DNA of 64,000 bases from an uncultured Ectothiorhodospiraceae bacterium (GCA_947258515.1 CAMYIO010000033.1:609-64608); one strand, 5' to 3'. Shown: positions 23,733 to 43,231, counted from the first letter of the stretch. Translations and numbers: made by a program. Notes: generated by a model from the letters alone, not told the origin.

Positions 23733-24241
23733 TCCCTGATCAGGTCACGAACCTGTTGCTGGTAGACAGTCTCAAGTCCGGGTTTATAGCCCTTGTGCAG
23801 GTAGCGCATATTGCCATCGCGATCCACCAGCACGGTGCTGGGCATGGCAACCACGTCATATTGCTTGCTGACGACGCTGTCGCTGTCAAATACCACGGGA
23901 AAACTCACCGGCAGTTCCTCCAGCAGTTTTTTCGCCTTGCTCGAATCAGCCTCGACGTTGACACCCAGCACGGTGAATCCCAGTGCACGGTACTTGTCAT
24001 GCAGTTCGCTGAGTACCGGCATCTCCTGGCGGCAGGGGCCGCACCACGAGGCCCAGAAATTGATCAGCACAACCTCGCCGCGGTATTCACTGAGCCTGAG
24101 ATTTTCACCCGTGTTGCTCTTCAGCGTAAAGTCCGGTGCACCCGACTGCTTCATGCCGGCATATACAGCGGATGTCGCCATGATCACCGCAGCGGCCATG
24201 CCGAGCCATGATTTCATGTAATGTGCTAACTTGTTTTCCAT
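23729..24241 (-). CDS. TlpA-family periplasmic thiol:disulfide oxidoreductase
   Basis: Signal peptide and thioredoxin fold with WASWCGPC active site. Stop/start overlap with the downstream lipoprotein gene. Confidence 0.8.
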   Translation of the reverse strand: MENKLAHYMKSWLGMAAAVIMATSAVYAGMKQSGAPDFTLKSNTGENLRLSEYRGEVVLINFWASWCGPCRQEMPVLSELHDKYRALGFTVLGVNVEADSSKAKKLLEELPVSFPVVFDSDSVVSKQYDVVAMPSTVLVDRDGNMRYLHKGYKPGLETVYQQQVRDLIRE

Positions 24242-24253
24242 AATCGACTCCTG

Positions 24254-24922
24254 TTAAAAGAAGAAACTGATACCGGCGGTACCTTCCAGGTTATGTGTTG
24301 TTTTATCCTTTCCGAGCAGGTCGGATTTGAAAATGTGGTCGCGGAAGTCTAGATGCAGCGCAACCCAGTCATTCACCAGGAACCGGTAGCCGGCGCCGAC
24401 GTTGACAGTGAAATGGCTGTCATCCGCAAACTCTGTATTTCCAACGCCGGCGATCAGGTACAGGGCACTGTTAAAGGCGTGACCCTTGCCGATAAATGCC
24501 TCACCCGGCAGGATGTTGTACCCCAGCGAGAGATTGTAGTAAGTCAGTTTCCGCTGACTGTCCGTCAGCACCCGGGCACCACCACTGAGCGTCTCGTAAC
24601 TGGTGTCGCCTGCCTTTGTCCGGCCGATAGCGGCCTCGGTAAAGAAGTCCTCGGTAATGTGGTAGGCGCCGCGCGCTCCATAGACCACGTTAGTGCCGAA
24701 GTCCTCGATACTCATGACACCGACAAAAGCACCGACCTCGAAGTCCTCACTGTCGATATCAGCTTCGGAAACCGTGCGTCTTTCAAGGTCCGGGCTTATC
24801 ACCGGCGTCGTGTCATCCTGTGGTGCATCATCAACCCGCACCCAGGAGCAACCCGGCAGCAGGCTCATGAAGGCCAGTGCAAGCATTGACCTCAGAAGAA
24901 AAATGCGAAACCTGCTTTCCAT
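24254..24922 (-). CDS. outer-membrane beta-barrel lipoprotein (OmpA/OmpW-like barrel)
   Basis: Lipobox LLPGCSW, amphipathic beta strands, C-terminal ...GISFFF. Confidence 0.6.
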   Translation of the reverse strand: MESRFRIFLLRSMLALAFMSLLPGCSWVRVDDAPQDDTTPVISPDLERRTVSEADIDSEDFEVGAFVGVMSIEDFGTNVVYGARGAYHITEDFFTEAAIGRTKAGDTSYETLSGGARVLTDSQRKLTYYNLSLGYNILPGEAFIGKGHAFNSALYLIAGVGNTEFADDSHFTVNVGAGYRFLVNDWVALHLDFRDHIFKSDLLGKDKTTHNLEGTAGISFFF

Positions 24923-25665
24923 TCGTTTATCTCCTGGTTGTCGTCCTTATCCTGAAAAATGACGCTGTTCCTGTATTCGGCACGCAGCAAGAATCGACGC
25001 GTCAGATAGCAGCGGATACCCACGCCGACACTGCCGATCTGCTCGGTACGATCCAGCTCATCGACCAGCGTAACGTTCGGGTCGGTATAGATAATCCCTG
25101 TCCCCAGAGAAAAGAAAGGCGACAGACGCCACTCCGGAAACGGATGCGCGAGCAGACTGACGCGACCAACAACCGAATCCGAATAATTCCCGAACACCTG
25201 TGATACAGACAATTCTGCAGAGAAATTCGCCGTCATGGCATATCCTGCATAAGCCGTGATCATATCCGCACCTTCAAAGTCTCCGGCCAGCACCCCGGCT
25301 TCCCAGCGTCTTTTCGAGAAATCCCCGATATTTGCCTCCGCGAAGCGGGTCTGGTCACCCGCGGGGGTTAACGTCTGTTCCATTTCCGCACGCCTGACCC
25401 AGCCTTCCTTGCCTTTCCCGGTACGTACCCTGAACCAGTCGGTACGCCGCTTCAGTACGCTAATGGTCTCGCCACGATCAACCACGTGGAATACCGGGTA
25501 ACCGCGGCCGGGGCCGGTATGCATTTCCAGGTATGGCGCAGCAACAACAACCTCGACCAGTTGTTCTTCAGAAAATGCCTGTCTGGCCAGCAGGGCCTGC
25601 AACAGCAGTACAATCACGAGCACGCGTAACTGCGAAAATCCCCGGGCAACAGTGCACGCGTGCAT
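24892..25665 (-). CDS. SH3-domain + outer-membrane beta-barrel protein
   Basis: Signal peptide, a bacterial SH3-like segment (YPVFHVVDRGETISVLKRRTDWFRVRTGKGKEGWV), then a barrel ending ...GFAFFF. Confidence 0.55.
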   Translation of the reverse strand: MHACTVARGFSQLRVLVIVLLLQALLARQAFSEEQLVEVVVAAPYLEMHTGPGRGYPVFHVVDRGETISVLKRRTDWFRVRTGKGKEGWVRRAEMEQTLTPAGDQTRFAEANIGDFSKRRWEAGVLAGDFEGADMITAYAGYAMTANFSAELSVSQVFGNYSDSVVGRVSLLAHPFPEWRLSPFFSLGTGIIYTDPNVTLVDELDRTEQIGSVGVGIRCYLTRRFLLRAEYRNSVIFQDKDDNQEINEWKAGFAFFF

Positions 25666-25675: not shown

Positions 25676-28252
25676 TCAGTTACCGGGTACTGCGAATGGA
25701 TCGTTGTAATACTGCGCACCGATATCCAGCCATTCCGAGACAAGTCTCAGTTCGGCTGCATCAAGACGATTCTCGTGACTGCCTCCACTGTTGAACAGAT
25801 CAAAAAAACGCCAGCTTGCACGTGCACCGGCGCTCGACATGGCAGGCGCAACCGGTACACGCACCTCGGTCGGCAATCCCGTCTCGGGATCGATCGGACC
25901 GGGTACCAGGATGTCCTGCAGGCCGTTATCACCGAGTTCCTCGGCGAAGTCAGCGAACAGTAGCTCCCGATAGGAGTGGAAATGCGCGGCCTGTTCTGCG
26001 GACACACCATCGGTCAGATCGAGCTGTGCATCCGGTACCCTGTCCATGTCGGCTGCATCGAGGCTGGCATGGCATTCTGTGCAGGTGTTTACGCCACGGT
26101 CACGATTCCACAGGGGGTGTATATGCTGCTCATAATTGATCACTGTCCTGCATTGACTGTCCCAGTCCCCCTGGCAGACGGATGAGGCCGGTGCAGCGGT
26201 TGACAGGTCCGCATACAGCAGGCTGGTTGACGCATCCTTGAGGCGAGCGGCAGCCATTTCGTCGGTCCAGAGGTCGTGATATATCAGGTCAGTCGAGGGT
26301 TGCAGGGAGAGGACATCAAACCGCGCCAGGGTTTCCGCCATGGTTTCTCCGTATATCGCGGGCAAGGCAGGGTCTGTATTCGGGAATTCCATAGCGGTTG
26401 CCGGGGCACCGGCATGCACAGACTGCGCCCCCTGCGGGTGACCGTGGGGGCTGCCACCGGCATGATTATGGCAACCGTTACAGTGGACTGTTTCCCCGGC
26501 ACGCACTTGCAACCAGTTCTGGTGACGGTCGCCGATGCGCCGTCCGTCCCTGTCCACCACGCTGATGGCCAGTGGCACATCGGCCGGTACCTTGACCCGC
26601 ACGGACCCGTCCGGCTGTACCGGTGTGTAGCCGATGATCTCGCGCATCAGTTGCTGGCTACTGCGTCCAAAGGCAGTAAACGGCAGTGTGGCCACGTCGT
26701 TGTCTGGCATGGCGACGGCCTTGACGATGCGCAGGAAACGGGCAGGGCGATCAGCGGCCAGGGACTCTTTCGGGTCGGCGAGCGTGGCGATATCCGGTGC
26801 CGCGGTATCCACACCGTCGATGTCATAGACACTGCGGATATTGAGTATGCCGACACCCTCGTCAATCCACTGCAGGTCCAGCTCGATACCGGGCTGCTTG
26901 TCGAAAATGATGGATGGCAGGGCGCGTGGGGCGGTTGCCACCACATTGGTATAGGTAATGCCTTCCTGCGGGACAACCACCGGTAACTGAGTATCGGTAG
27001 ACATGTCATAGAGAAATATTCCGTACAGTGGATCGGCCTCGAGTGCATCAGGACTTTCAATCCGGCCGGCGGTGCAGGGGACAATCACGGTATCCTCCAG
27101 CAAACGGCATTCGCTCCAGCTGACCAGTACACGATCCGTACCATCCAGCAGCGGCCAGGCGCTACGGAAACGGCCACCGGGAGAGACACTGTTGTCTGTA
27201 CGGACATCATTGATCAGCAGAGCGGACTGCGCCGGTCCGGACAGTATCCCCTGGTTGTCCATTGTAGGTTCGGTGTTATCGATATAGTTTTCGATATCCA
27301 GTGAAATCAGCTCGCCGCCACGGTAGGACCCTGTAAATGGCAGCAGCAGGGCGAGCAGCCGGCCATTTTCCAATTCCCGCGGTTGCAGGAAATGCACATC
27401 AGCGTTATTGGTGCCGGTGTCATGGCTATGGGAACCGTACAGAAGCTGCAAGCCGGTCCCGTCCGGATACATCTTGTAGAGGCTTATGGCATTACGACTA
27501 CCCATGTCATCCCAGCGGCTGAAAACCACTTCTCCGGAAGAAAGCACCATCGGATCAAGATCGTGGCTCTGGTTAAACGAGACCTGCCTGATATCACTAC
27601 CGTCTGCATTCATGACATGTAACACCATGGCATGTTCGTTGAGGTTTTCATCCAGCGCGGTAAATTGTGGTTTGCCTTCGTCCAGCAGCACGGCACGCGA
27701 TGTTCTTTGACGTGACGAGGAGAATATTATGCGGCCATCCGGCAGGTAGTGTGGCGCCACATCCTGCCCGGCGGCAGCGGTAATGTCCGACGGGATGACG
27801 CGCTGCAGCTCATCGGCCTCAATCAGGTATTCCCAGATATCCCACTTCGGCTGGTCAGCCGGGGCGAGGCCGGGTATCTCGGGCGCACGCATGGCGAAGA
27901 GCAGCCGCTCGCCGTCATAGGACACTTCAACATCCTTCACATCACCCAGGCCACCGGTGAAGGATGCGGTTACATTGCGTTGCCGTGCACCCGGAGAAGC
28001 CAGATCACGGTAAAACAGGTCACCACCGGCATTGAACGTTAATGCCTCGCGAATATCCGGCTGCGTCAACACATTATTCATATCAACGATCAGAGGACGA
28101 CGCACAAAGGCAATACCGAAATCCTCGACCAGTGGATCAGGGTCCTGACCATCACCCCCGCCACATGCCTGCAATGCAACAGACAACACGCAGGCAACGC
28201 ACATGGCTGCAATCTTCCTGACGCCCTGAAAACACGCGTTGATTAGAGTCAT
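25676..28252 (-). CDS. lipoprotein with PD40/TolB-like beta-propeller repeats and two c-type heme motifs
   Basis: Lipobox LQAC. Propeller-like repeats (DGSDIRQVSF..., LYKMYPDGTGLQ...) plus HCNGCH and CTECH CXXCH motifs. The ORF opens at a TTG (28342), but an internal ATG gives a proper lipoprotein signal. Confidence 0.6.
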   Translation of the reverse strand: MTLINACFQGVRKIAAMCVACVLSVALQACGGGDGQDPDPLVEDFGIAFVRRPLIVDMNNVLTQPDIREALTFNAGGDLFYRDLASPGARQRNVTASFTGGLGDVKDVEVSYDGERLLFAMRAPEIPGLAPADQPKWDIWEYLIEADELQRVIPSDITAAAGQDVAPHYLPDGRIIFSSSRQRTSRAVLLDEGKPQFTALDENLNEHAMVLHVMNADGSDIRQVSFNQSHDLDPMVLSSGEVVFSRWDDMGSRNAISLYKMYPDGTGLQLLYGSHSHDTGTNNADVHFLQPRELENGRLLALLLPFTGSYRGGELISLDIENYIDNTEPTMDNQGILSGPAQSALLINDVRTDNSVSPGGRFRSAWPLLDGTDRVLVSWSECRLLEDTVIVPCTAGRIESPDALEADPLYGIFLYDMSTDTQLPVVVPQEGITYTNVVATAPRALPSIIFDKQPGIELDLQWIDEGVGILNIRSVYDIDGVDTAAPDIATLADPKESLAADRPARFLRIVKAVAMPDNDVATLPFTAFGRSSQQLMREIIGYTPVQPDGSVRVKVPADVPLAISVVDRDGRRIGDRHQNWLQVRAGETVHCNGCHNHAGGSPHGHPQGAQSVHAGAPATAMEFPNTDPALPAIYGETMAETLARFDVLSLQPSTDLIYHDLWTDEMAAARLKDASTSLLYADLSTAAPASSVCQGDWDSQCRTVINYEQHIHPLWNRDRGVNTCTECHASLDAADMDRVPDAQLDLTDGVSAEQAAHFHSYRELLFADFAEELGDNGLQDILVPGPIDPETGLPTEVRVPVAPAMSSAGARASWRFFDLFNSGGSHENRLDAAELRLVSEWLDIGAQYYNDPFAVPGN

Positions 28253-28510
28253 AGTAGATCCTGATGCACATATATAAGTACGCACATCCGACGTCGTTTT
28301 CCTTTGGTGATCCCTGCATCCGTAATCACACACAAAAATCAATGTGATTCAGTTCCCGCCTGTTACATAACCCGTGTCGCAGTTGAACTATAGGACAGTC
28401 GAGGAATCCTGTTCCGCGAACAGAATCACAGAAAGCCACGCCTACAAACATCAGGATTGTCAGCCACGGAGATAACGACAATTAAAAACCAATGATTGCA
28501 GGAAGTGATT

Positions 28511-29704
28511 ATGCGTCTGTCAAAACAGTCTGATTACACAACGTCTAACCACCGGATCCGCAGGGCAATCATTGTGTGCATCCTGATGTTGTTCTCTACG
28601 ACTGCTTTTGCCGATGCACTCGAACGCCGTCAGGCGAAACGCCTGCATGACAGGCTGGCCGGTATTCCGCCAGAGGAATCGGTACTTGATGACATGGAAG
28701 CCGCGTTAATGGCCGGCAATGATCTGGATGCAGCCCTTATCGCAATGGACAACAAGGCCTTCTATAACATTACCCTGAAAAATTTTGCGGCCCCATGGAG
28801 CAACCGTGAAAGGACGCTGTTTGCACCGTTGAATGACTACACCGCCACCGTCATCGGCATGATTCGCGATAAAACACCCTTCAACGAACTGCTGTCAGCC
28901 AACCTGGTATATGTCGGCGATCCGGTATTGGGACTGCCTGACTACTCAATGACCGACAACGATCATTACCAGGCGCTGGAGGACCAGGGTATTGACCTGA
29001 AGACTCACCTGCAGGCCGTCACACAGACTTCTGTCACCGACCTGCCGGTAAATGCAACGGCGGGCGTGATGACGACGCGTGCTGCAGCCGAGGCTTTTTT
29101 CGTGGCGGGAACAAACCGCGCCATGTTTCGCTTCACCTTGCTGAATCATCTCTGCAACGACATGGAGCAGGTCAAGGACAGCAGTTATTCACCTGCCCGC
29201 ATTCGCCAGGATGTCTCACGCAGTCCCGGCGGTGACAGTCGCCTGTTCCTCAACTCCTGCATCGGTTGCCACAACGGCATGGACCCGATGGCTCAGGCGT
29301 TCGCCTACTACAACTTCGATGAAACCACTCAGCGTATCCAGTACACACCCGGTTCGGTACAGCCCAAATACCATATCAATGCCGACACCTTCAAGTACGG
29401 CTACATCACAGCGGATGACCGCTGGGACAATTACTGGCGCAGTGGTCAAAACGCATTGCTGGGCTGGGACAGCAACCTGACCGGTTCCGGTTCCGGTGCC
29501 AAATCAATGGGCAGAGAACTTGCCAACAGCGAGGCATTCGCCCGTTGCCAGGTCAAGAAGGCCTTCAAGACGGTTTGTTTGCGTGATCCGGGCAACGCGG
29601 CTGACCGTAACCAGGTGGACATCACCACTGCCAGTTTCAAGGCGGACAACTACAACATGAAGACAGCGTTTGCAGAAGTTGCCGTCTACTGCATGGGCGA
29701 ATAA
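28511..29704 (+). CDS. secreted protein with one CXXCH heme motif (PSCyt/DUF1588-like?)
   Basis: Signal peptide and CIGCHNGMDP motif. AGGAAG Shine-Dalgarno. Translationally coupled to the next gene (4-nt gap). Confidence 0.55.
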   Translation: MRLSKQSDYTTSNHRIRRAIIVCILMLFSTTAFADALERRQAKRLHDRLAGIPPEESVLDDMEAALMAGNDLDAALIAMDNKAFYNITLKNFAAPWSNRERTLFAPLNDYTATVIGMIRDKTPFNELLSANLVYVGDPVLGLPDYSMTDNDHYQALEDQGIDLKTHLQAVTQTSVTDLPVNATAGVMTTRAAAEAFFVAGTNRAMFRFTLLNHLCNDMEQVKDSSYSPARIRQDVSRSPGGDSRLFLNSCIGCHNGMDPMAQAFAYYNFDETTQRIQYTPGSVQPKYHINADTFKYGYITADDRWDNYWRSGQNALLGWDSNLTGSGSGAKSMGRELANSEAFARCQVKKAFKTVCLRDPGNAADRNQVDITTASFKADNYNMKTAFAEVAVYCMGE

Positions 29705-29707
29705 CCA

Positions 29708-32200
29708 ATGAACTACATCATAAATTCCATCATGCATCTCGTCCTGCATCGATACGGGGCAGTGTTGCTTGCCAGCGCCATGCTTTCCGCCTGTGGCGGT
29801 GAAAGCACGACTGAAAATCCGCAGACATTTACCACCATGACGTCCAGTTATTCCGGCCCGGCAGCAACGACGGCCGATGTACAGGCATTCAGGCTGAATG
29901 TCTGGGAGAACCTCAATAGACAGAATCGTTGTGGTGCCTGCCACGGTAGCGGCGGTCAGTCACCCACATTCGTACGCATGGATGACGTCAACCTCGCCTA
30001 TGCCGAGGCGAACAGCATCGTTGACCTCGCCAACCCGGCCAGTTCACGCATGGTAACCAAGGTAGCAGGCGGTCATAACTGCTGGCTGGACAGTGACAGT
30101 GCCTGTGGTGATGTCATCACGGCCTATATCACCGCCTGGGCCGGTGGGGTCGCCGGTGGCGGAAATATTATTGAACTCGTTGCACCCCCGCTGCGAGACC
30201 CGGGTGACAGCAAAAGTTTTCCCGACGACTCGGGCCTGTTCGCCACTACCGTGCATCCCTTGCTAACGGCTCATTGTGCCAGCTGCCATGTGGATTCGGC
30301 CGCCAATGCACAGTCTCCCTTCTTTGCGGACAGTGACGCGGACACAGCCTACGAGGCCGCCAAACCCAGGATTGACCTGGATAATCCCGCGAACTCACGT
30401 TTCGTGCTGCGGCTGCGTGAAGAATTTCATAATTGCTGGACATCTAACTGCCTGAATGACGCTGACACCATGGAAGCAGCCATCGCCGCCTTCGCTGCAC
30501 AAATCCCGGTGACGCAAATCGATTCACAGCTTGTCACCAGCAAGGCCCTGACATTACCCGACGGTATCGTTGCCAGTGGTGGTAGCCGCCATGAACAGAA
30601 TGTCATCGCGCTGTACCAGTTTAAAACCGGGCAGGGAAACACCGCGTTCGACACCAGTGGCGTCGAACCGGGCATGCACCTGACACTGAGCGGCAACACC
30701 GGCTGGGTGGGTGGCTGGGGACTCGATATCACCAATGGCAGGGCGCAGGCCTCGACGACAACCAGCCGCAAGCTGCATGAACTGATTACCGCCACCGGTG
30801 AATACACCATTGAAGCCTGGGTGGTAGCAGCCAACGTCACCCAGGAAGGTCCGGCACGCATTATCAGTTACTCAGCCGGAACCACTGTGCGTAATTTCAC
30901 CCTCGGGCAAACGCAGTACAACTACAATTTCCTGCAGCGCAACACCAACACGGACCCCAATGGTGATCCCGCACTGTCTACTGCTGATGCCGATGAAGAC
31001 CTGCAGGCGACGCAACAGCATGTCGTGGCAACCTATGACCCGGTAAGGGGCCGCCGTATTTACGTGAATGGCATCTTTACCGGTGACAGTGACCCGGTTG
31101 CCGGCGGCAGCCTGATTGACTGGGATGACAGTTTTGCCTTCCTGCTGGGTAACGAGGTCTCCGGTGACCGCCAGTGGCAGGGCCGGTTGCGGCTGGTAGC
31201 CATCCATAACCGTGTCCTCACCAATGCACAAATCATGCAGAACTTTGAAGCAGGTGTTGGTGAGAAATTCTTTTTACTGTTTAACGTCAGTGATCATAGC
31301 GGCATTGCGGACTCCTATGTCATGTTACAGGTCAGCCAGTTCGACAACTACAGCTATCTGTTCAATGACCCGTTATTCATCATCCTCGATGCCGATGCCA
31401 CGCCAGACAATATCCCGGTGGCGGGCATGCGCATCGGAATCAACGGCAAGGAGGCGAGCGTCGGTCAGGCCTATCAGCATCTGGATACCACTCTCAGCAG
31501 TGCACAGTATCAACCCGGCATGGGCCAGAAACTGTCCGTACTGGGGACCATTATTGCACTGGAAAAAGGTCCTGAATCAGACGAATTCTTTCTAACCTTC
31601 GAGGTGTTTGGAAACAGTACCCATGTTGTACTTGAGCCACAGCCACTGCAGCCCGGCACACCGCCCGATCTGCCGGAAGCCGCAGATGTCGGACTGCGTA
31701 ATTTTGACGAGATCAATGCCACTATGGCCACCATTACCCGCGTCAGTCCTGAACAGGAAGATGTAGACGATGTATTCGAAACCGTCAGGCAACAGCTGCC
31801 CACCGTTGAAAATATCGAGGGGTTTCTCTCGGCACACCAGATGGCAGTCTCGCAAATGGCCATCGAATACTGCAACGCGCTGGTAGATAACAACGGCAAC
31901 GTGCTGCGCACGGACTATTTTCCGCAGTTTGATTTCAACGAGACGGCAGACAATGCCTTTAATACAGCCGCCCAACGTGACAAGGTCATCCTGCCACTGC
32001 TCAACAGGGTAATGAATACCGGGTTAACAACACAGCCCGACCCCGCACAGGTCATCAGCGAACTTGACGACCTGATACTCATCCTGACTGCCTGCGCCAA
32101 TGGTCCTTCGCCGGGTTGCGCGACAGTGACACGTACGCGGGAAGTCGTGAAGGCGACCTGTGCCGCCATGCTTGGCAGTGCCGCCATGCTGATTCAATAG
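29708..32200 (+). CDS. lipoprotein with two repeated CXXCH-containing domains and a LamG/concanavalin-like domain
   Basis: Lipobox LSAC. A ~100-aa module occurs twice (CGACHG...SPTF...NPASSRMV...HNCW and CASCHV...SPFF...NPANSRFV...HNCW), followed by a LamG-like region. Confidence 0.6.
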   Translation: MNYIINSIMHLVLHRYGAVLLASAMLSACGGESTTENPQTFTTMTSSYSGPAATTADVQAFRLNVWENLNRQNRCGACHGSGGQSPTFVRMDDVNLAYAEANSIVDLANPASSRMVTKVAGGHNCWLDSDSACGDVITAYITAWAGGVAGGGNIIELVAPPLRDPGDSKSFPDDSGLFATTVHPLLTAHCASCHVDSAANAQSPFFADSDADTAYEAAKPRIDLDNPANSRFVLRLREEFHNCWTSNCLNDADTMEAAIAAFAAQIPVTQIDSQLVTSKALTLPDGIVASGGSRHEQNVIALYQFKTGQGNTAFDTSGVEPGMHLTLSGNTGWVGGWGLDITNGRAQASTTTSRKLHELITATGEYTIEAWVVAANVTQEGPARIISYSAGTTVRNFTLGQTQYNYNFLQRNTNTDPNGDPALSTADADEDLQATQQHVVATYDPVRGRRIYVNGIFTGDSDPVAGGSLIDWDDSFAFLLGNEVSGDRQWQGRLRLVAIHNRVLTNAQIMQNFEAGVGEKFFLLFNVSDHSGIADSYVMLQVSQFDNYSYLFNDPLFIILDADATPDNIPVAGMRIGINGKEASVGQAYQHLDTTLSSAQYQPGMGQKLSVLGTIIALEKGPESDEFFLTFEVFGNSTHVVLEPQPLQPGTPPDLPEAADVGLRNFDEINATMATITRVSPEQEDVDDVFETVRQQLPTVENIEGFLSAHQMAVSQMAIEYCNALVDNNGNVLRTDYFPQFDFNETADNAFNTAAQRDKVILPLLNRVMNTGLTTQPDPAQVISELDDLILILTACANGPSPGCATVTRTREVVKATCAAMLGSAAMLIQ

Positions 32201-32220
32201 AACACTACCGGGAGTATTGC

Positions 32221-33819
32221 ATGGCCAGAAAATCCAACCACCGTCGACTGAATGAACCCCTGCGCCTGAATGATCATGGCCGCCCGATCAGCCGCCGTGA
32301 CTTGCTGGGGCAGGGGCTTCTTTCAGGGCTTGGCCTCGTGACCGCACCGACGTTCTTCGGCCTGTTCGCCAATCCGCGCAGGGCCGCCGCGGACCTGTCC
32401 CCGGATCTGGAGGCGTTGAAGACCAGCTGCGGCATCAAGTCCCTCGGCGCCGGTAAAATTCCGTTTATCTGTTTTGACCTGGCCGGGGGTGCGAATATCG
32501 CAGGCTCCAACGTACTGGTCGGGAAACAGGACGGGCAACTGGATTCCCTGAGCACCGCCGGTTACAGCAAACTGGGGTTACCGGGTGACATGACACCGGA
32601 CTCGATAAATCCGCTGACAGGCAACAGTTTCATTAACACGGACTTCGGGCTCGGCTTTCATGCCAGCAGTGCGATGCTGCAGGGCATTCAGGAAAAGGCG
32701 CTGGGCCGCAGCACTGAAATCAATGGTGCCGTGATCCCCGCGCGCTCGGATAACGACACCGCTAACAACCCGCACAATCCCATGTATGGCATCGCGCGTG
32801 CCGGTGCAGATGGCAGCCTGTTGTCTCTGATCGGCTCCAGGAGTTCCGACTCCGGCGGAAACTCCATGGCACCGGCCATGCTGATTGATCCCTCGATCCG
32901 TCCCACCAAGGTTGACCGTCCGTCCGATGTCACGGGCATGGTGGATACCGGCCAGTTGATCGGCGTGCTCAGCCAGGATGACGCGGTTGCCGTGATGGAG
33001 TCCATCGAACGCATCAGCCGGATGAAACTCGACCAGGTCGATACCCGGGTCACGGCGGATGCCATAGTCAAGGACCTGGTGCAATGTGGCTATGTGAAGG
33101 CGGCAGACATTGCCGACCGTTTTGGTGACCCGACCACGCTTGATCCGGCGCTCGATCCTGACATTGTCGGGCCTGGCGGGATATTCGATCAGACCGAATT
33201 CAACAATGACAGCGAGTTTCGCAAAACCGCTTCCGTCATGAAAATGGTCATCAATGGTTTTGCCGGTGCCGGAACAATCACCCTGGGTGGCTATGATTAC
33301 CACACCGGCGATCGCGCCAGCGGTGAATTGCGCGATCTGCGTGCCGGGCGCTGCATCGGCGCCTGTCTGGAGTATGCTGCACGCGCCAACAATGGCAACG
33401 GTGTACCTTTGATGGTCTACGTATTCAGTGATGGTTCCGTATTCAGCAACGGCATGACAGATGACACCCAGACGGGTGGCGGCAAGGGCGTCTGGACCGG
33501 TGATAACTCTTCAACCGCCGCGTCATTCTTTCTTGTCTACAATCCAGGATCAAGGCCACAATTGCTCGGCGCAGACATGGTTGAACGGGCCGTACACCAG
33601 CAGCTGGGGCATTTCCGCAGTGACGGTTCTGTAGAAACCAATGCCACACCGGCCGCCAACCAGGTCAACCTGCTGGTCGAGACCGTGATACTGAATTACA
33701 TGGTACTGCATGGCGAGCAGGCTAACTTCACGAGCCTGTTCCCGAACCATGGCCTCGGTAATGCTGCACTCATGGACAAACTGACCGCGTTCAATCCCAT
33801 TGTTTCCGGGACGATATAG
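32221..33819 (+). CDS. twin-arginine (TAT) signal protein, DUF1552/DUF1501-like partner of the CXXCH proteins
   Basis: Tat motif SRRDLLGQGLLSGLGL. GGGAG Shine-Dalgarno before ATG 32221. The longer ORF upstream (32116) overlaps the previous gene. Confidence 0.55.
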   Translation: MARKSNHRRLNEPLRLNDHGRPISRRDLLGQGLLSGLGLVTAPTFFGLFANPRRAAADLSPDLEALKTSCGIKSLGAGKIPFICFDLAGGANIAGSNVLVGKQDGQLDSLSTAGYSKLGLPGDMTPDSINPLTGNSFINTDFGLGFHASSAMLQGIQEKALGRSTEINGAVIPARSDNDTANNPHNPMYGIARAGADGSLLSLIGSRSSDSGGNSMAPAMLIDPSIRPTKVDRPSDVTGMVDTGQLIGVLSQDDAVAVMESIERISRMKLDQVDTRVTADAIVKDLVQCGYVKAADIADRFGDPTTLDPALDPDIVGPGGIFDQTEFNNDSEFRKTASVMKMVINGFAGAGTITLGGYDYHTGDRASGELRDLRAGRCIGACLEYAARANNGNGVPLMVYVFSDGSVFSNGMTDDTQTGGGKGVWTGDNSSTAASFFLVYNPGSRPQLLGADMVERAVHQQLGHFRSDGSVETNATPAANQVNLLVETVILNYMVLHGEQANFTSLFPNHGLGNAALMDKLTAFNPIVSGTI

Positions 33820-33824: not shown

Positions 33825-34853
33825 ATGACCCACCCGCACAGTCTCATGCCATCCAGGCCCCACACGATTAACAATCGGGCACGTCATGTACGCCTTTTAA
33901 TACTGTCCATACTGATGCTATTGCCACTCGATGCCAGCGCCGGCTGGATCCGCCAGGAAGCCGCCATCATGGGCACGGCCATCAATGTTGAACTCTGGCA
34001 TGAAGACGCTGCACAGGGCAGGGCCCTGACACAGGCGGTACTGGACGAAATGCATCGCATCGACAATTTGATGAGTACCTACAAGCCTGACAGCGAGCTG
34101 TCCTTAATCAATGCCAATGCCGCCGACGGACCGGTTACCGTCAGCACGGAACTGTTGTCTCTGATCATACGCGCGCTGGATTACTCTGTAATTACGGCTG
34201 GCGCCTTTGATATCACCTATGCCAGTGCAGGACAGTACTATGATTACCGGAACGCTAAAAAACCCAGCGACAGGCAACTCGAGCAGGCATTGCCTGCCAT
34301 CAATTACCGTCACGTAAAGATTGACCCGCAAAGCTCCAGCATTGAATTCATGCGCCAGGGTGTACGCATAGACCTTGGCGGCATAGCAAAGGGCTATGCC
34401 GTTGATCGCAGCATGGAAATACTGCGAAGTGGCGGCGTCGAAAATGCCATTGTCAGTGCCGGTGGTGATTCGCGCGTCATCGGTAAGCGCCGGGACAGGC
34501 CCTGGAATGTCGGCATCCGCCATCCTCGCAACAAGGACAGTATCGTCTCGATGATTCCGCTGGAAAATTCAGCCATCTCCACCTCCGGTGATTATGAACG
34601 CTATTTTGAAGAGGGCGGTGTGCGCTACCATCACATCCTCAACCCGGGCACGGGCACTTCGTCTCACGAGGTACACAGTTCCAGTATTATCGGGGCAGTG
34701 GCGACGGATACGGATGCACTGTCTACCAGTGTGTTTGTACTCGGCGTCAATGACGGTCTGCAGTTAATCAATTCCATACCTGATACCGAGGCCGTCATTA
34801 TCGACAACCAGGGACGTATGCATTATTCCACCGGTCTCGCACAGCTCCAGTAA
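33825..34853 (+). CDS. apbE: FAD:protein FMN transferase (ApbE family)
   Basis: Signal peptide and ApbE motifs (FDITYASAGQYYDY, IDLGGIAKGYAVD, ISTSGDYERYFE...RYHHILNP). Confidence 0.85.
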   Translation: MTHPHSLMPSRPHTINNRARHVRLLILSILMLLPLDASAGWIRQEAAIMGTAINVELWHEDAAQGRALTQAVLDEMHRIDNLMSTYKPDSELSLINANAADGPVTVSTELLSLIIRALDYSVITAGAFDITYASAGQYYDYRNAKKPSDRQLEQALPAINYRHVKIDPQSSSIEFMRQGVRIDLGGIAKGYAVDRSMEILRSGGVENAIVSAGGDSRVIGKRRDRPWNVGIRHPRNKDSIVSMIPLENSAISTSGDYERYFEEGGVRYHHILNPGTGTSSHEVHSSSIIGAVATDTDALSTSVFVLGVNDGLQLINSIPDTEAVIIDNQGRMHYSTGLAQLQ

Positions 34854-34869: not shown

Positions 34870-34939
34870 ATGTAGGAGCGCCGTCCCCGGCGCGATTGTT
34901 TTTTCATGATTCGAATCGCGGCGAGGACGCCGCTCCTAC
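34870..34939. repeat. REP-like palindromic element (type A, copy 2)
   Basis: tgtaggagcgccgtccccggcgcgattg ... aatcgcggcgaggacgccgctcctaca, the same element as at 22303. Confidence 0.6.
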
Positions 34940-35083: not shown

Positions 35084-35638
35084 ATGTCCCTGAAATGCCA
35101 TTTTCCTGTTCCGTTCCGTTTCTGGATAGTACTGCTGATATTCTGCACTACCACAGTCGCCGCAGAGCCGGCCGCACAAACAGCCGGCACGACGGCAAGT
35201 CTCGATGAAGAAATCCAGTCCCTGAAGCAAGACGTGCTGGCGCTCAACCGGGAACTGTTCATCCTTGAAGAAGAACTGCTGTACCCTGCAAACACCCAGG
35301 TCGCGGTGTTTCTGTCTCTCGACATCGGCGAGTTTTTCAGCCTTGACTCGGTACAACTGAAGATCGACGACAATGTGGTCAGCAACTATCTCTATACGCA
35401 ACGCGAGGTAGACGCCCTGCACCAGGGCGGTGTCCAGCGCCTCTACATGGGCAACCTTAAGGCCGGTGAACACGAGCTGGTTGCCATCTTCACGGGCCAG
35501 GGACCCAATGGCCGGGAATACCGTCGTGGCGCCAACCATATCATCACCAAGACACTCGGGGCCCGATTCATTGAACTGAAAATTGTCGATAACGACAGCA
35601 GCGAGCAGCCTGATTTCAGCATCAGGGAATGGGAATAA
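35084..35638 (+). CDS. periplasmic coiled-coil protein (first gene of the Exb/TPR cluster)
   Basis: Signal anchor, coiled-coil segment (EEIQSLKQDVLALNRELFILEEELL), then a beta-rich domain. GGAGG Shine-Dalgarno. Confidence 0.5.
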   Translation: MSLKCHFPVPFRFWIVLLIFCTTTVAAEPAAQTAGTTASLDEEIQSLKQDVLALNRELFILEEELLYPANTQVAVFLSLDIGEFFSLDSVQLKIDDNVVSNYLYTQREVDALHQGGVQRLYMGNLKAGEHELVAIFTGQGPNGREYRRGANHIITKTLGARFIELKIVDNDSSEQPDFSIREWE

Positions 35639-37515
35639 GCAGCATGCCGGTTTTCACCTGCTCACGGCTGTTGCTGCTGTGTCTGATCGTGATCACACCC
35701 TCACTTGACGCAGCGGATGCACCGCCGTCAGCGGTCAAGGACCTGCAATACGGCGAGGTTCTCTACCATTATTTCCAGCAGGACTACTTCAACAGCATCG
35801 TGCGCCTGCAGATTGCAAGGCAGCAGCAACGCCTGCCAAACCACGCGGCAGAGGCCGAACTGATGCTGGGTGGTCTCGACCTGTCCTATGGCCTCAGGGA
35901 CGAGGCCAACCACATTTTTCAACGCCTGCTCAGCGAGGAGACCAGCGATGTCAGCACGCGCAACCGTGCCTGGTTCTATCTTGCGAAGATCTCCTGGCAG
36001 CGCGGTGATATAAACGCGGCACTGCAGGCCATAGAACGTGTGCAGGGAACGATGACAGCCGCAACCCGCACAGCCACAGTCAACCTGCACAGCCTGCTGT
36101 TGCTGCAACAGGGTAACAACCAGGCGGCCATTAAGCTGTTGCAGGATGCACGCAGCGGCAAACGCTGGTCACCGTTCCTGAACTACAACCTCGGTATTGC
36201 CCTGATCCGGGAACAGCAACAGCAGCTGGGCGCGAAACAACTTGATCATATCGGTGATATCAATGGCCGCAACGAGGAGCTGCGCCTGCTGCGTGACAAG
36301 GCCAACCTGGCACTCGGCTACAGTTACCTGCAAGACGGCAATCCGGAAATGGCCCGCAAGACACTGGAGCGTGTACGTCTCGAAGGCCCGCTGTCGAACA
36401 GGGCATTGCTCGGCACCGGCTGGGCAGATACCGAAAGTGAAAACTATGCAGCGGCACTGGTGCCGTGGCTGGAGTTGAGCAGCCGTGACAGCACCGATCC
36501 GGCGGTACAGGAATCATTGCTGGCCATTCCCTATGCCATGACAAAGATGAACCTGCATGGACGCGCTGTAGAGCATTACAATGATGGCATCAGGCAGTTG
36601 ATCGAGGAACGACAGAAACTGGATCAATCCATCAGCGCCATCCACCAGGGCAGACTGCTGGATCTGCTGCAACAACACAACCTCGGCGCCGGCAACGGCT
36701 GGATGCAACAACTGCACCTCGACTCCGAGGCACCTGCGCTGCGCTACCAGCTCGCACTGATGTCATCGCACGACTTTCAGGAAGCTGTGAAGAATTACCG
36801 TGATCTCCTTGTATTACAAGTTAATCTATCCAGCTGGGAGAGCGCTATCGCCGCCTACGACGATATGCTCGCCGGCCGCCAGGCACGCTTTGAGACACAC
36901 CGCCCCGCAGCACAACAGGTACTGCAGGGCACGCGCCTGCAGCAACTGCAACAGCGCCGTGCCGCACTGGCCGAGAATCTTGCCCGCATCGGCATAATGG
37001 ACGATGCCGCCGCACTGGCGACCCCGGAAGAGGCCCGGCAGTGGCATCAACTGGCAACCATCGCTGAGCGACTGGCGCAGCTACCGGATAATCCCGATAC
37101 CGCGACATTGCACGACAAGCAGCAGCGCCTGCGTGGCCTGCTCATCTGGCAATTTCAGGAAGACTACAAACCACGCCTGTGGCAAGCCAGGAGGCAACTC
37201 GCCGAACTGGACACCCTGCTCAACGAGTCACAGCACGGCATCGACAGCCTGCAGCAGGCCAAAATCGATGCCCCGTCCGGTTTTGGCGATTTCAAACGGC
37301 GTATCGCCGCTAACAAGTCAACCATCGAGAAACTGTCAGCACAGACGGATACCACCCTGCTTGCACAAGGCAAGCAACTGGAGCATCTCGCCATCAATGA
37401 ACTGGAGCGTCAACAACAGCGTGTCGATGCCTATATCATCCAGGCACGTTTCGCGCTTGCGCAAACCTATGACAACGCCCTGCAGCAACCGGCAGTGGAG
37501 GGGAGCGTACAGTGA
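35629..37515 (+). CDS. periplasmic TPR + coiled-coil protein
   Basis: Signal peptide, N-terminal TPRs and a long C-terminal coiled-coil. Overlaps the next gene's start. Confidence 0.6.
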   Translation: MGISSMPVFTCSRLLLLCLIVITPSLDAADAPPSAVKDLQYGEVLYHYFQQDYFNSIVRLQIARQQQRLPNHAAEAELMLGGLDLSYGLRDEANHIFQRLLSEETSDVSTRNRAWFYLAKISWQRGDINAALQAIERVQGTMTAATRTATVNLHSLLLLQQGNNQAAIKLLQDARSGKRWSPFLNYNLGIALIREQQQQLGAKQLDHIGDINGRNEELRLLRDKANLALGYSYLQDGNPEMARKTLERVRLEGPLSNRALLGTGWADTESENYAAALVPWLELSSRDSTDPAVQESLLAIPYAMTKMNLHGRAVEHYNDGIRQLIEERQKLDQSISAIHQGRLLDLLQQHNLGAGNGWMQQLHLDSEAPALRYQLALMSSHDFQEAVKNYRDLLVLQVNLSSWESAIAAYDDMLAGRQARFETHRPAAQQVLQGTRLQQLQQRRAALAENLARIGIMDDAAALATPEEARQWHQLATIAERLAQLPDNPDTATLHDKQQRLRGLLIWQFQEDYKPRLWQARRQLAELDTLLNESQHGIDSLQQAKIDAPSGFGDFKRRIAANKSTIEKLSAQTDTTLLAQGKQLEHLAINELERQQQRVDAYIIQARFALAQTYDNALQQPAVEGSVQ

Positions 37516-38276
37516 AGCCCGTACTGCCTGTCATGGTGATGATGGCCGCCCTGTCAAGCGCCTGCTCAGTGCTGCACGGGGACAATGAGCCTACCATCGC
37601 GAGCCTCGGCAAACGCCCGGTAAAACTCGAGGACACACCGGTGTCAGCCAGTGAAGTGCAGGCGATCTCGGCCTACCGGTCCTTTCTTGACAGCGGTGAT
37701 GAATCGGATTCACGCCCGCACGCGATGCGCCGCATTGCCGACCTGAACCTGGAAAAAGAGGAACTGCCGCAAGCCGGGCAGACTACCCCGGACACCCCGT
37801 CGCTGCAGCCAATAGAGGCGCGCGAATCCATCGAACTGTACCAGAGCGTACTGTCACTCTATCCACAGCGCGCGGACAACGACTCGGTGCTCTATCAACT
37901 CGCACGCGCCTACGAGATGGATGGCCAGCCGCGACAATCGCTCGACACGCTGGCAACCCTCGTACAACACTACCCGCAGAGTCAATATGTGCTGGAAGCA
38001 CAGTTCAGGCGTGGCGAGATCCTGTTCGAGCAACGCGACTACGATAACGCAGAGCAGGCCTACCGCGCCGTGGTCAGCAGTGGCCCGGATAATTCGTTCT
38101 ACCGGCAATCGCTATACAAGAGCGGCTGGTGTTTTTTCAAGCTGTCAGAGCTGGATGAATCACTGGATGCCTTCATGGCACTCCTCGATCTGGAGCTGCA
38201 GGATACCGAAGCGGGTATTGCGCAACTCGATCAGCTGAGCCGTCCGCGGCGCGAACTGGCGCGAACTGGTGGATGA
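37512..38276 (+). CDS. TPR lipoprotein, 5' fragment of a split ~935-aa TPR gene (GltD/AgmU-like)
   Basis: Lipobox LSSACS. The frame ends 8 nt after the tandem 10-bp duplication gcgcgaactg/gcgcgaactg at 38249-38268. Removing one copy fuses it in frame to the next ORF. Confidence 0.6.
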   Translation: MKPVLPVMVMMAALSSACSVLHGDNEPTIASLGKRPVKLEDTPVSASEVQAISAYRSFLDSGDESDSRPHAMRRIADLNLEKEELPQAGQTTPDTPSLQPIEARESIELYQSVLSLYPQRADNDSVLYQLARAYEMDGQPRQSLDTLATLVQHYPQSQYVLEAQFRRGEILFEQRDYDNAEQAYRAVVSSGPDNSFYRQSLYKSGWCFFKLSELDESLDAFMALLDLELQDTEAGIAQLDQLSRPRRELARTGG

Positions 38277-40320
38277 CACCCTGCGCGTGGTCAGTCTGGG
38301 TTTCTCCTATGGGCAGGGTGCCGATGGCGTGTCCGAGTATTTCAAGCGACGCGGCACACGCCATTACGAATACATCATCTACGACAACCTTGGCCTGCTG
38401 TACCTGCAGAAGGAACGTTATAACGACGCCGCACAAACCTTCCAGGCGTTTGTGACACAAAACCCCATACATCGCCTGGCGCCCGGCTTCCAGATGCGCG
38501 TTATCGAGACCTATCAGCAAGGCAACTTCCCGACACTGGTACTGGAAAGCAAGGAGGCACTGGTCGATCAGTACAACCTGCAGAGTGAGTACTGGCAGCA
38601 TTACTCGCCAGAGGACAACCCGCAGGTACTGGATTACCTGAAGCTGGCCATGACTGACCTGTCCCGTCACTACCATGCACTGGCGCAGAAGGACAAGAAG
38701 CCGCAGGACTACCAGCAGGCCGCACACTGGTACCGGCGCTACCTGGGTTCATTCAGGGAGGATGCGGACGCGCCGCAGATGAATTTCCTGCTGGCCGAAC
38801 TGTTATTTGAATCCGGTGACTACCAGCAGGCCGCACTGGAATACGAAATTACCGCCTACGACTACGCCCCTCACGAGAACGCAGCAGCTGCCGGTTATGC
38901 GGCGGTACTCGCCTATGACAAACAGGAAGAGCGCCTGACAGGCAGCGCACAACAGGCGTGGCACCGGCAGTCTATCGAGTATGCCATCCGCTTTGCCAGC
39001 ACCTTCCCCCGGCATCCGCAGGCCATGGCTGTCCTTACCCGCAGCAGCGAACAGCTGCTGGCCAGCGGTGACCAGGAACGGGCAATACAGGTTGCGCAGT
39101 CAGTCATTGCCAGCGAGCAGGCCAGTGCCGTCCAGCAACGGGTTGCCTGGACGGTACAGGCACATGCCTACTTCGAGCAGGGAGATTTCCTGCAGGCTGA
39201 GGCCGCCTACCAGCAGGTACGCCAGCGCATGCCACGGGATAACAAGGAGTATGACAATATAAATGAGCGACTTGCCGCATCTATCTATAAACAGGGAGAA
39301 GCTGCGCAGGCGGCCGGTGAAACCGCCGACGCCGTCGCCCATTTCCGGCGGGTGCGTGAAGCCACACCCACGGCCTCCATCGTGGCCACCGCCGAATTCG
39401 ATGCGGCTGCCGGATTATTGTCACTACAACAATGGTCACAGGCTGCCGCCATGCTGGACCGTTTCCGCAACAGCTACCCGAATGATCCACGCCAGGACGA
39501 GGTAACGCGACGCCTCGCCACGGCTTACCTGGCCGAGGAGCAACCGCTGCAGGCCGCCCGCGAGTTCGAACGCATCGGCACCAGCCATGAGGACCCGACA
39601 TTGCGGCGTGAGGCACTCTGGCAAGCAGCGGAACTGTATACCGCGGCCGGCCAGCCGAACGAGTCCGTCGTGGCATACCAGCGCTACATCCAGCAATTTC
39701 CGCAACCCGTTGAACCAGCCGTCGAGGCACGGCAACGGATCGCTACACATTACGCGGCCAGCAACAACCTGGCGGAACAGCAGCGCTGGTTGAAGGACAT
39801 CATCAGGGCGGACCGGCAGGCGGGCAAGCAACGCAGTGACCGCACCCGCTATCTTGCCGCGCGCGCACAACTGACGCTTGCTGATAATGCCCATGAAAAC
39901 TACCGTCGCGCAAGACTGGTCCTGCCATTGAAGAAAAGCCTCGCTGTCAAGAAGCGCCTGATGCAATCGGCCATGCAGCAATACGAACAGGCCGCCGCTT
40001 ACCAGGTCGCCGAAGTCACCACGGCGGCCACCTTTCAAACGGCGCAGATCTATACGGAACTGGGCGTCGCCTTGCTGCAATCACAGCGACCGGCGAACCT
40101 GAGCGGCGAGCCCCTGGAGCAATACAACATTCTGCTGGAAGAACAGGCCTATCCGTTTGAAGAGCAGGCCATCACGCTGCATGAGACCAATGTGCAACGC
40201 ATCGAGTCCGGTCTGTACAACGCCTGGATCGAAAAAAGCCTGCAACAACTCGCGCAACTGGTGCCGGCCCGGTATGCCAAACTGGAAAGAGGGGCGCCCT
40301 ATGTCACCGCACTTAAATAA
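38269..40320 (+). CDS. TPR protein, 3' fragment of the same split gene
   Basis: Continues the TPR array (RRELVDDTLRVVSLGF... after removing one repeat copy). It has no start codon or Shine-Dalgarno of its own. Confidence 0.6.
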   Translation: MDDTLRVVSLGFSYGQGADGVSEYFKRRGTRHYEYIIYDNLGLLYLQKERYNDAAQTFQAFVTQNPIHRLAPGFQMRVIETYQQGNFPTLVLESKEALVDQYNLQSEYWQHYSPEDNPQVLDYLKLAMTDLSRHYHALAQKDKKPQDYQQAAHWYRRYLGSFREDADAPQMNFLLAELLFESGDYQQAALEYEITAYDYAPHENAAAAGYAAVLAYDKQEERLTGSAQQAWHRQSIEYAIRFASTFPRHPQAMAVLTRSSEQLLASGDQERAIQVAQSVIASEQASAVQQRVAWTVQAHAYFEQGDFLQAEAAYQQVRQRMPRDNKEYDNINERLAASIYKQGEAAQAAGETADAVAHFRRVREATPTASIVATAEFDAAAGLLSLQQWSQAAAMLDRFRNSYPNDPRQDEVTRRLATAYLAEEQPLQAAREFERIGTSHEDPTLRREALWQAAELYTAAGQPNESVVAYQRYIQQFPQPVEPAVEARQRIATHYAASNNLAEQQRWLKDIIRADRQAGKQRSDRTRYLAARAQLTLADNAHENYRRARLVLPLKKSLAVKKRLMQSAMQQYEQAAAYQVAEVTTAATFQTAQIYTELGVALLQSQRPANLSGEPLEQYNILLEEQAYPFEEQAITLHETNVQRIESGLYNAWIEKSLQQLAQLVPARYAKLERGAPYVTALK

Positions 40321-42719: not shown

Positions 42720-42721
42720 TC

Positions 42722-43228: not shown

Positions 43229-43231
43229 GCC

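Follow-up and report, generated by a model that had tools for sequence, protein, structure and literature searches.

A gammaproteobacterial gene module of predicted haem proteins and a Tat-exported protein, with putative distant kinship to the PSCyt/PSD and DUF1501 systems

In this work, we describe a gene module in a stretch of 64,000 nucleotides from an uncultured Ectothiorhodospiraceae bacterium (GCA_947258515.1 CAMYIO010000033.1:609-64608), hereafter the window. Three adjacent genes, which we call P1, P2 and P3, encode two proteins with CxxCH motifs and one with a twin-arginine translocation (Tat) signal. The original prediction, made from the sequence alone, took them for secreted proteins of 398, 830 and 533 amino acids (aa) and compared them with the PSCyt/PSD and DUF1552/DUF1501 pairs of Planctomycetes. 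The three open reading frames (ORFs) are confirmed as real genes, closely packed together with ApbE, and their export signals can be read in the sequence; P1 is one residue shorter than proposed (397 aa), and everything else in that observation agrees. In this 397-aa version, P1 equals database protein P0241, from an uncultured gammaproteobacterium, in length and sequence. The features of this run are as follows.

28511-29704, plus strand: P1, predicted Sec-secreted monohaem protein of 397 aa; ORF from 28496, with AGGAAG before the likely ATG at 28511.
29708-32200, plus strand: P2, lipoprotein of 830 aa with lipobox LSAC29, two predicted haem modules and a LamG domain.
32218-33819, plus strand: P3, Tat-exported protein of 533 aa; ORF from 32116, with GGGAG before the likely ATG at 32218.
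33825-34853, plus strand: ApbE, FAD:protein FMN transferase (Pfam ApbE, E 1.6e-84), last gene of the operon.
34878-34893, plus strand: terminator-like GC hairpin with a T-run, 3' of ApbE, probably the end of the operon.

The gaps between the genes are short (3 nucleotides between P1 and P2, 17 between P2 and P3, 5 between P3 and ApbE) and the only convincing terminator-like hairpin in the run is the one at 34878-34893, after ApbE, which suggests that the four genes are a single operon. No Rfam family was found in the 22-36 kb of the window.

Stretches from relatives or taken for comparison, used for synteny and homology, carry labels such as L001; 82 loci, from a genome scan and a first look-up, were compared for gene order. 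P2 adjoins P3 in all 82. P1 is present in 72 and a divergent gene resembling that of hydrazine synthase alpha (hereafter HZS-alpha-like) in 71, and the loci without either have little or no sequence upstream of P2. P1, P2 and P3 form one conserved unit, larger than first noted: the HZS-alpha-like gene, two outer-membrane barrel genes and the ApbE/DUF3570 module are conserved partners that the original prediction missed. An SH3-barrel gene is syntenic in 68 of the 82 loci and a second barrel gene in 49, a count limited by flank length, while ApbE lies within 8 kb downstream in 24 and additionally in L085 and L087.

Among marine Gammaproteobacteria the module is a common one, and the genome scan yielded at least 589 matching stretches. 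The P3 family comprises about 1,290 clusters at 50% identity in a representative library. Cultured carriers include Microbulbifer, Alteromonas, Paraglaciecola, Shewanella, Gilvimarinus, Agaribacter and Glaciecola, and further ones are Thiodiazotropha, Sedimenticola and metagenome-assembled genomes (MAGs) of Steroidobacteraceae and Woeseiaceae. In the cultured Gammaproteobacteria sampled, the module is present as one copy at a fixed locus. The idea that such pairings are rare outside Planctomycetes was overstated: classical DUF1553 and DUF1501 pairs occur on plasmids of Alteromonadaceae and Bacteroidota.

Conservation was scored in 70-74 orthologues (81 for P3), drawn from 80 species genomes. 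P1 has a Sec-type signal ending in AFA/D, by direct reading, and a single haem motif, C250IGC253H254, within CIGCHNGMDP (residues 250-259). The one CIGCH module foreseen for this protein is therefore present, and its C250, C253 and H254 are 100% conserved in 70 orthologue sequences, as are C215, C346, C356 and C394. Against Pfam, the window P1 scored 20.4 bits with PSD2 (PF07624, DUF1585; E 4e-4, residues 333-395 in ORF numbering), below the cut-off of 25.8, and 13.6 bits with PSCyt3 (PF07627, DUF1588; E 0.087, residues 253-273 in ORF numbering), for which the cut-off is 27; the latter match covers the CxxCH motif. Within the family, PSD2 was matched in 57 of 58 orthologues (best E 1.5e-6) and PSCyt3 in 31, and many database homologues carry a precomputed PF07624 assignment. 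PSD3, PSD4 and PSD5 gave no Pfam match in P1 or the 58 orthologues at E values up to 0.1, and a PDB sequence-profile search with P1 returned no relative. In hhalign, the P1 family aligned with the PSD4/PSCyt3/PSD1-like C-terminus of a 2,327-aa protein of Vibrio maritimus (86% probability, E 5e-6, 260 columns). Judged from these profiles, P1 appears to be remotely related to proteins with the PSCyt3-PSD2 (DUF1588-DUF1585) architecture.

In P2, two haem modules (residues ~56-144 and ~176-264) are followed by LamG (~299-515), a second beta-sandwich (~520-642) and a helical, Cys-containing C-terminal domain (~655-830). The first module carries C75GAC78H79, H123-N-C125-W and C133, and the second C190ASC193H194, H241-N-C243-W and C248. 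The proposed internal duplication stood up to comparison, the two modules being 40% identical over 57 aa in BLASTP (E 6e-11) and matching with 99.3% probability over 88 columns when compared profile to profile across orthologues (E 6e-21). Conservation of the CxxCH motifs in orthologues, which had been named as a test, amounts to 96-100%: C75, C78 and H79 are kept in 99, 99 and 96% of the orthologues, respectively, and C190, C193, H194, H123, C125, H241, C243 and C248 in 100%. The H-N-C-W…C stretch downstream of each CxxCH is 99-100% conserved and plausibly provides a distal His ligand and a disulfide; the lipobox Cys29 is likewise conserved at 99-100%. LamG, also foreseen, was recognized as Pfam Laminin_G_3 (E 1e-19, residues 358-509) and was found in all of 54 orthologues.

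Generic cytochrome c models matched P2 weakly: Cytochrome_CBB3 appeared in 45 of the 54 orthologues, below the cut-off. Membership of P2 in the PSCyt/PSD family was not borne out, since PSCyt1 matched only one of the 54 orthologues, with an E value of 0.058, and PSCyt2 and PSD1 matched none. The profile check suggested in the original prediction thus gave a divided answer: PSCyt/PSD domains are recognizable in the P1 family, although the window P1 is itself below threshold, and P2 is without them. When the P2 haem modules were compared by hhalign with the haem regions of P1 or of the HZS-alpha-like protein, the match was confined to the neighbourhood of the CxxCH motif, and by its profile the P2 haem module appears as a separate family of its own. 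Searches with P2 found lectin folds, namely the botulinum-toxin HC and sialidase lectin domains for its beta region in Foldseek, a result that reflects lectin-like beta domains alone, and only LamG/sialidase lectins in the PDB sequence-profile search. Taken together, P1 and P2 hold three CxxCH motifs conserved at 96-100% and both bear export signals; they are predicted c-type haem proteins, to which we infer that haem is attached.

P3 carries the twin-arginine motif ISRRDLL followed by a hydrophobic stretch. This signal, noticed at the outset, was confirmed: R26 and R27 occur without exception in 61 diverse members of the family, and of 81 orthologues at least 97% keep them. Other conserved positions are D87, H148, S151, D180, H186, GGYD360YH362, SD405G and D429. 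In an AlphaFold2 (AF2) model of good quality (pLDDT 87), D87 lies at the end of the first strand, H148 and S151 before a helix, and the D-x-H after a later strand. Neither the H..SHH motif of DUF1552 (HxxSHH) nor the formylglycine motif C/S-x-P-x-R is present in P3, by direct reading. The PDB sequence-profile search with P3 gave no relative, tblastn of P3 against plasmids gave only noise, and motif scans of the fetched loci revealed no DUF1501-like or Tat ORFs. In several MAG records at NCBI, homologues of P3 bear the name 'general secretion pathway protein GspF', which no similarity supports and which looks like a propagated misannotation.

A link to DUF1501 emerged through an intermediate. 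A profile of a Vibrio-type DUF1501 subfamily (74 sequences, from a metagenome scan) matched P3 in hhalign with 93.8% probability (E 1.8e-7, 341 columns), and still with 83.4% (E 8.5e-6) when signal peptides were removed, the reversed control giving 0.6%. This subfamily in turn matched classical DUF1501 with 99.3% probability (E 8e-21). The landmarks of P3 and DUF1501 coincide, LGGYDYH corresponding to LGGFDTH, SDG to SDFGRTP and GKGVW to GKDHW. We conclude from these alignments that P3 is probably a very divergent protein of the DUF1501 superfamily, outside the Pfam family as now defined and connected to it via the intermediate subfamily only. For DUF1552 (PF07586), the comparison consisted of its Pfam model and motif reading, and neither gave a match.

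Five distant loci, with P3 proteins 30-38% identical and GC contents of 37-58%, which suggest that they probably belong to different lineages, show the same parts in another arrangement. The order there is P1-like gene, small lipoprotein, P3-like gene and larger lipoprotein, with the contig of L089 ending before P1. The P1-like genes match P1 at E 1e-98 to 1e-130. The small lipoprotein, of 215-250 aa, matches P2 at ~640-815 (E 1e-10 to 1e-40), and the last lipoprotein combines the second beta-sandwich of P2 with one or two haem modules of the HNCW type, without LamG. Because its parts are separate genes in these loci, the 830-aa P2 of the window is a fusion of two proteins, and such fission and fusion is strong evidence that all parts of the module act together; the pattern also defines the domains that must work together. 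In one distant version (L083, 10889-13579), the four core genes are followed by two more, whose products, a CVTCH lipoprotein of 356 aa and a protein of 499 aa bearing a pair of CxxCH motifs in its N-terminal part, are accessory cytochromes that differ from the HZS-alpha-like one.

On the opposite strand, upstream of P1, the window has the following genes.

25676-28252, minus strand: HZS-alpha-like lipoprotein (Pfam HZS_alpha, E 5.6e-14), with the likely ATG at 28252.
24892-25665, minus strand: protein with an SH3 domain and an outer-membrane beta-barrel (Pfam SH3_3, 4e-11; OMP_b-brl, 6e-7).
24254-24922, minus strand: small outer-membrane beta-barrel protein (Pfam OMP_b-brl, 5e-7).
23729-24241, minus strand: secreted thioredoxin-like (AhpC-TSA/Redoxin) protein, a member of the flavinylation module, at the same position in L001, L085, L086 and L087.
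23496-23732, minus strand: DUF4266-type small lipoprotein of 78 aa, with a C-terminal CGCN (CXC motif) by direct reading.
22408-23539, minus strand: DUF3570, of a flavinylated outer-membrane-type family (Pfam, 7e-23 and 2e-6 on two halves).

The HZS-alpha-like protein (860 aa, lipobox Cys at ORF residue 60) consists of a beta-propeller and two domains that each hold a CxxCH motif, the HZS_alpha middle domain (C621NGCH) and the C-terminal haem domain (C754TECH); it is collinear with chain A of 5C2V over the entire stretch between propeller and C-terminus. The two motifs are conserved at 99-100%. With the NCBIfam model hydrazine_alpha it scored 40.5 bits, the cut-off being 800, and genes for the beta and gamma subunits of hydrazine synthase were not seen among the annotated neighbours in the window, L001 and L085-L087. 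The C-terminal haem domain of the HZS-alpha-like protein shows similarity to the PSCyt1 region of a DUF1553 protein of Catenovulum (hhalign 82%, E 1e-5). The divergent promoter region between this gene and P1 contains a perfect 15-bp palindrome, CTGTTCCGCGAACAG, at 28409-28423; since it is shared with the closest relative, L008, only, it is probably a lineage-specific operator or a chance occurrence.

The gene order DUF3570, DUF4266, thioredoxin-like, barrel, SH3-barrel and HZS-alpha-like, with P1, P2 and P3 on the opposite strand, is common to the window, L001, L085, L086 and L087. ApbE, DUF3570, DUF4266 and the thioredoxin-like protein are all present in the window, L085 and L087, while L001 and L086 have the last three and no ApbE in view. 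In the relatives, the syntenic gene of the 78-aa lipoprotein is assigned to Pfam DUF4266, a family whose CXC motif is described in PMC8238504. According to the same article, the four components constitute a flavinylation-based extracytosolic electron-transfer module (Meheust et al. 2021, PMC8238504). This module brackets the haem/Tat cluster in the lineage of the window. DUF3570 in the window and its relatives has two tandem variant motifs, DSISSAS and VVTTAS/TSAS, compared with the published [S/T]GA[S/T], and TSGAS occurs in L085 only. As [S/T]GA[S/T] is absent from P1, P2, P3 and the HZS-alpha-like protein, these would not be substrates of ApbE by the motif criterion.

The window DUF3570 gene is split by a frameshift near 22970-22977 into two overlapping ORFs of 189 aa, whereas in L001 and L085-L087 each orthologue is encoded by a single ORF, 375-392 aa long; the split is either an assembly error of the MAG or the mark of a pseudogene. 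In L086, two FGE-sulfatase (formylglycine-generating-enzyme family) genes lie at 43-2130, beside the DUF3570 end of the cluster, and a SUMF1/EgtB/PvdO-family gene is found near a classical DUF1501 pair in Haliscomenobacter (L098). These neighbours may hint at a formylglycine-type modification, though P3 is without a CxPxR motif.

Two other gene groups of the window deserve mention. Directly 3' of the operon, on the plus strand at 35084-44242, there are genes for a 184-aa protein without Pfam match, four TPR proteins, MotA/ExbB, two ExbD and a TonB-like protein; the first two genes of this cluster recur downstream of P3 in 30 of the 82 loci, and the linkage is either functional or merely lineage synteny. 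At 13727-20219, also on the plus strand, a 917-aa fusion of a multihaem (MtrC/c554-like) cytochrome with TPR is followed by a 612-aa FG-GAP/ASPIC-UnbV protein and a 558-aa TPR protein, another uncharacterised, redox-looking extracytoplasmic trio.

It is rather probable, based on the sequence comparisons above, that P1, P2 and P3 make up one extracytoplasmic machine, a highly divergent gammaproteobacterial version of the modules that combine a PSCyt/PSD haem protein with a Tat-exported DUF1501 protein. P3 would be folded, and probably metal-loaded, in the cytoplasm, exported by Tat, and act as the catalytic subunit through an alkaline-phosphatase-superfamily-like core with an Asp/His-rich site (D87, H148/S151, D180, D360-x-H362, D405). 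P1, with one c-type haem, and P2, with two and an anchor in the outer membrane, would pass electrons to or from P3, while LamG and the second beta-sandwich of P2 would bind a substrate or partner and its C-terminal helical domain would dock the complex. The module might be wired to the HZS-alpha-like dihaem propeller lipoprotein, the two outer-membrane barrels and the ApbE/DUF3570/DUF4266/thioredoxin flavin system, in which flavinylated DUF3570, DUF4266 and thioredoxin-like proteins would provide a link to the reducing power of the cell. Neither of the two lipoproteins, P2 and the HZS-alpha-like protein, has Asp at +2, and both are therefore probably located on the outer membrane, near the two barrels. 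The co-transcription of ApbE and the linkage of DUF3570 and the HZS-alpha-like cytochrome point to electron transfer. What the sequences show directly are the genes with their export signals and conserved haem motifs, the operon, the synteny, the splitting and joining of genes and the remote homologies; that haem is attached, that metal is bound, that the proteins form a complex, which way electrons run and that any reaction is catalysed are what we infer.

Several observations weigh against this interpretation. Pfam and NCBIfam gave no match for P3 and 60 diverse relatives, so that DUF1501 (at E values up to 1) and DUF1552 were likewise unmatched in all of them; the suggested DUF1552/DUF1501-like character of P3 survives only as the remote link to DUF1501 through the Vibrio-type subfamily (E 1.8e-7), not as a Pfam match to either family. 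Direct hhalign comparison of P3 with 3-11 classical DUF1501 proteins yielded insignificant probabilities of 2-12%. The best 50 Foldseek matches of P3 in PDB all belong to the alkaline-phosphatase superfamily, at weak values (E 0.016-0.17, TM about 0.2), and enzymes of this fold are mostly hydrolases and transferases rather than redox enzymes, with no evident reason for haem partners. The domain roles in P2 are guesses, because its AF2 model is poor (pLDDT 64), with secondary structure of low confidence. No carbohydrate-active enzyme (CAZyme) or other gene pointing to a substrate is conserved beside the cluster. Finally, none of the five distant loci has the HZS-alpha-like or flavin partners, which are therefore regarded as accessory.

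Other explanations have to be considered. That P1, P2 and P3 are mere neighbours with no common function is effectively refuted, given that P2 and P3 are adjacent in all 82 loci and likewise in the five deeply divergent ones, and that parts of P2 are fused or split between lineages. A system acting on nitrogen oxides, hydroxylamine or hydrazine, in which the HZS-alpha-like protein would be the catalyst and P1-P3 its electron-transfer or accessory subunits, is suggested by the HZS_alpha match above cut-off (E 5.6e-14), the collinearity with 5C2V chain A and the synteny of this gene in 71 of the 82 loci. We regard it as very unlikely, for the protein scores only 40 bits where hydrazine_alpha demands 800, the beta and gamma subunits were not seen among the annotated neighbours, the five distant loci keep P1, the P2 parts and P3 but not this gene, and the carriers are not anammox bacteria but marine heterotrophs and sulfur oxidisers, aerobic or facultative.

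A device for the redox chemistry or acquisition of a metal (Fe, Mn or Cu) at the outer membrane, tied to the TonB-ExbB-ExbD/TPR cluster and the DUF3570 flavin system, would accord with the position of the former 3' of the operon in the window and its recurrence in 30 of the 82 loci, with the outer-membrane location suggested by two barrels and two lipoprotein cytochromes, and with the association of DUF3570 clusters at times with iron transporters, mentioned in PMC8238504. It is nonetheless an improbable explanation: most loci lack the TonB cluster beside the module, genes for a TonB-dependent receptor or for siderophores were not seen in the cluster, nor was a Fur box, and LamG and beta-sandwich domains favour a macromolecular ligand over a metal ion. 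Similarly unlikely, in our opinion, is a hydrolytic, non-redox enzyme acting on a glycan or esterified polymer, with P3 resembling a sulfatase or phosphatase, LamG binding carbohydrate and the haem domains being structural or sensory. Sulfatases are indeed among the fold matches of P3, LamG and carbohydrate-binding module (CBM) associations are noted in PMC5615132, and genes for GH115, GH88 and a fucose permease lie beside classical DUF1553 and DUF1501 pairs; this cluster, however, has no conserved CAZymes beside it, P3 is devoid of the formylglycine motif, and the strict conservation of five haem sites across P1, P2 and the HZS-alpha-like protein (96-100%), together with a flavinylation module, is difficult to account for unless electrons are transferred.

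Beyond the reading of P1-P3 as one machine, a wider proposal can be put forward more tentatively. P1, the C-terminal domain of P2, P3 and the HNCW-type haem module may constitute an undescribed four-part extracytoplasmic redox system in at least several hundred species, one that would bring the PSCyt/DUF1501 modules of the Planctomycetes-Verrucomicrobia-Chlamydiae (PVC) group, the HZS-alpha-like cytochrome and the DUF3570 system into one electron-transfer pathway with a reaction new to biochemistry; we consider this possible rather than likely. If true, one candidate reaction would be that a redox-active metalloenzyme of alkaline-phosphatase fold processes a polymer or small molecule at the outer membrane, by oxidation or reduction. 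Few gene families of Planctomycetes and Verrucomicrobia are as expanded as the modules of PSCyt/PSD with DUF1501 or DUF1552, and to our knowledge no function has been assigned to them since they were described in 2004-2012. Pfam and NCBIfam are blind to the present branch. Its single-copy version in cultured and genetically tractable hosts (Shewanella, Alteromonas, Microbulbifer, Paraglaciecola) makes the function directly testable. We found no paper on this gammaproteobacterial cluster, and the distinctive haem module, the domain fusion and the links to HZS-alpha-like and ApbE/DUF3570 genes do not appear in the literature searched.

The systems that most resemble the module are the PSCyt1/PSCyt2/PSD1 (DUF1549/DUF1553) proteins and their Tat-exported DUF1501 partners in Planctomycetes, Verrucomicrobia, Bacteroidota and some Alteromonadaceae (Kamneva 2012, PMC3542564; He 2017, PMC5615132). 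In both cases, a secreted c-type haem protein, often with Laminin_G_3, stands beside an enzyme-like protein with a Tat signal, and P3 seems remotely homologous to DUF1501 through the intermediate subfamily. For the PVC modules, electron transport coupled to a cofactor-bearing, Tat-dependent enzyme, possibly acting on carbohydrates, has been proposed (PMC3542564; PMC5615132). The classical pairs on plasmids of Alteromonadaceae and Bacteroidota, which adjoin the GH115, GH88 and fucose-permease genes, are often accompanied by a six-bladed propeller and an extra c-type cytochrome. This four-part layout would be mirrored here by P1/P2, P3 and the propeller-cytochrome fusion of the HZS-alpha-like protein, a parallel that is only architectural in the case of the propeller, because hhalign found no similarity between the HZS-alpha-like protein and the '6-bladed beta-propeller' partners of classical modules. 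The differences are that P1 and P2 are without detectable PSCyt1, PSCyt2 and PSD1, that P3 escapes the Pfam DUF1501 model (PF07394), that haem and binding functions appear to be divided between P1 and P2, and that the window module is linked to ApbE/DUF3570 instead of CAZymes. The PSCyt/PSD-type haem protein that accompanies P3 is P1, located two genes upstream in the same operon and kept in 72 of the 82 loci.

Another group of proteins has the domain order PSD3-PSD5-PSD4-PSCyt3-PSD2 (DUF1587/1595/1592/1588/1585) and is paired with DUF1552. In P1, too, a PSCyt3 haem motif precedes a PSD2-like C-terminus, but this protein is half the size and has no match to PSD3, PSD4 or PSD5; P3, for its part, has no Pfam match to DUF1552, its sole detectable link being to DUF1501. 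The pairing of PSD3-PSD2-type proteins with an unknown neighbour family was noted in PMC5615132.

The nearest sequence bridge found between classical and divergent modules is a pair of the Vibrio/Photobacterium type. On the Vibrio maritimus plasmid NZ_CP090440.1 (L094, 3934-12177), the 2,327-aa protein mentioned above combines GbpA_2, a GSDH-like region, CBM96, LamG, cytochrome c and weak PSD4/PSCyt3/PSD1 matches; its gene adjoins a short, Pfam-positive DUF1501 gene (E 1.5e-22) and lies downstream of plasmid-borne tatB/tatC. LamG and c-type haem are common to both systems, P1 aligns to the C-terminal part of the large protein and P3 to the DUF1501 subfamily. The Vibrio-type pair differs in having one giant polypeptide in place of P1 and P2, a DUF1501 recognized by Pfam, and no duplicated haem module of the HNCW type.

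The HZS-alpha-like partner shares with hydrazine synthase alpha (5C2V chain A) the layout of propeller, middle-domain haem and C-terminal haem, whereas sequence similarity is very low, no beta or gamma subunits were seen among the annotated neighbours, and the partner gene lies outside the three genes first noted and is absent from the distant modules. All four components of the ApbE/DUF3570 flavinylation system surround the cluster, with ApbE in the P1-P3 operon, but the DUF3570 sites of the window read S-S-A-S and T-T-A-S instead of [S/T]GA[S/T]; a link of this system to a haem/Tat module was not found in the part of PMC8238504 available. The alkaline-phosphatase superfamily (sulfatases, iPGM, phosphoethanolamine transferases) is the only family that Foldseek relates to the P3 core, sharing with it an Asp at the end of the first strand and a later D-x-H, while the matches are weak, no canonical nucleophile motif was identified in P3 and P3 has a large helical insertion. 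Seen against these systems, modules of a PSCyt/PSD haem protein and a Tat-exported DUF1501 protein are of a kind already known, though uncharacterised, and the variant presented here would be a new, very divergent and widespread one.

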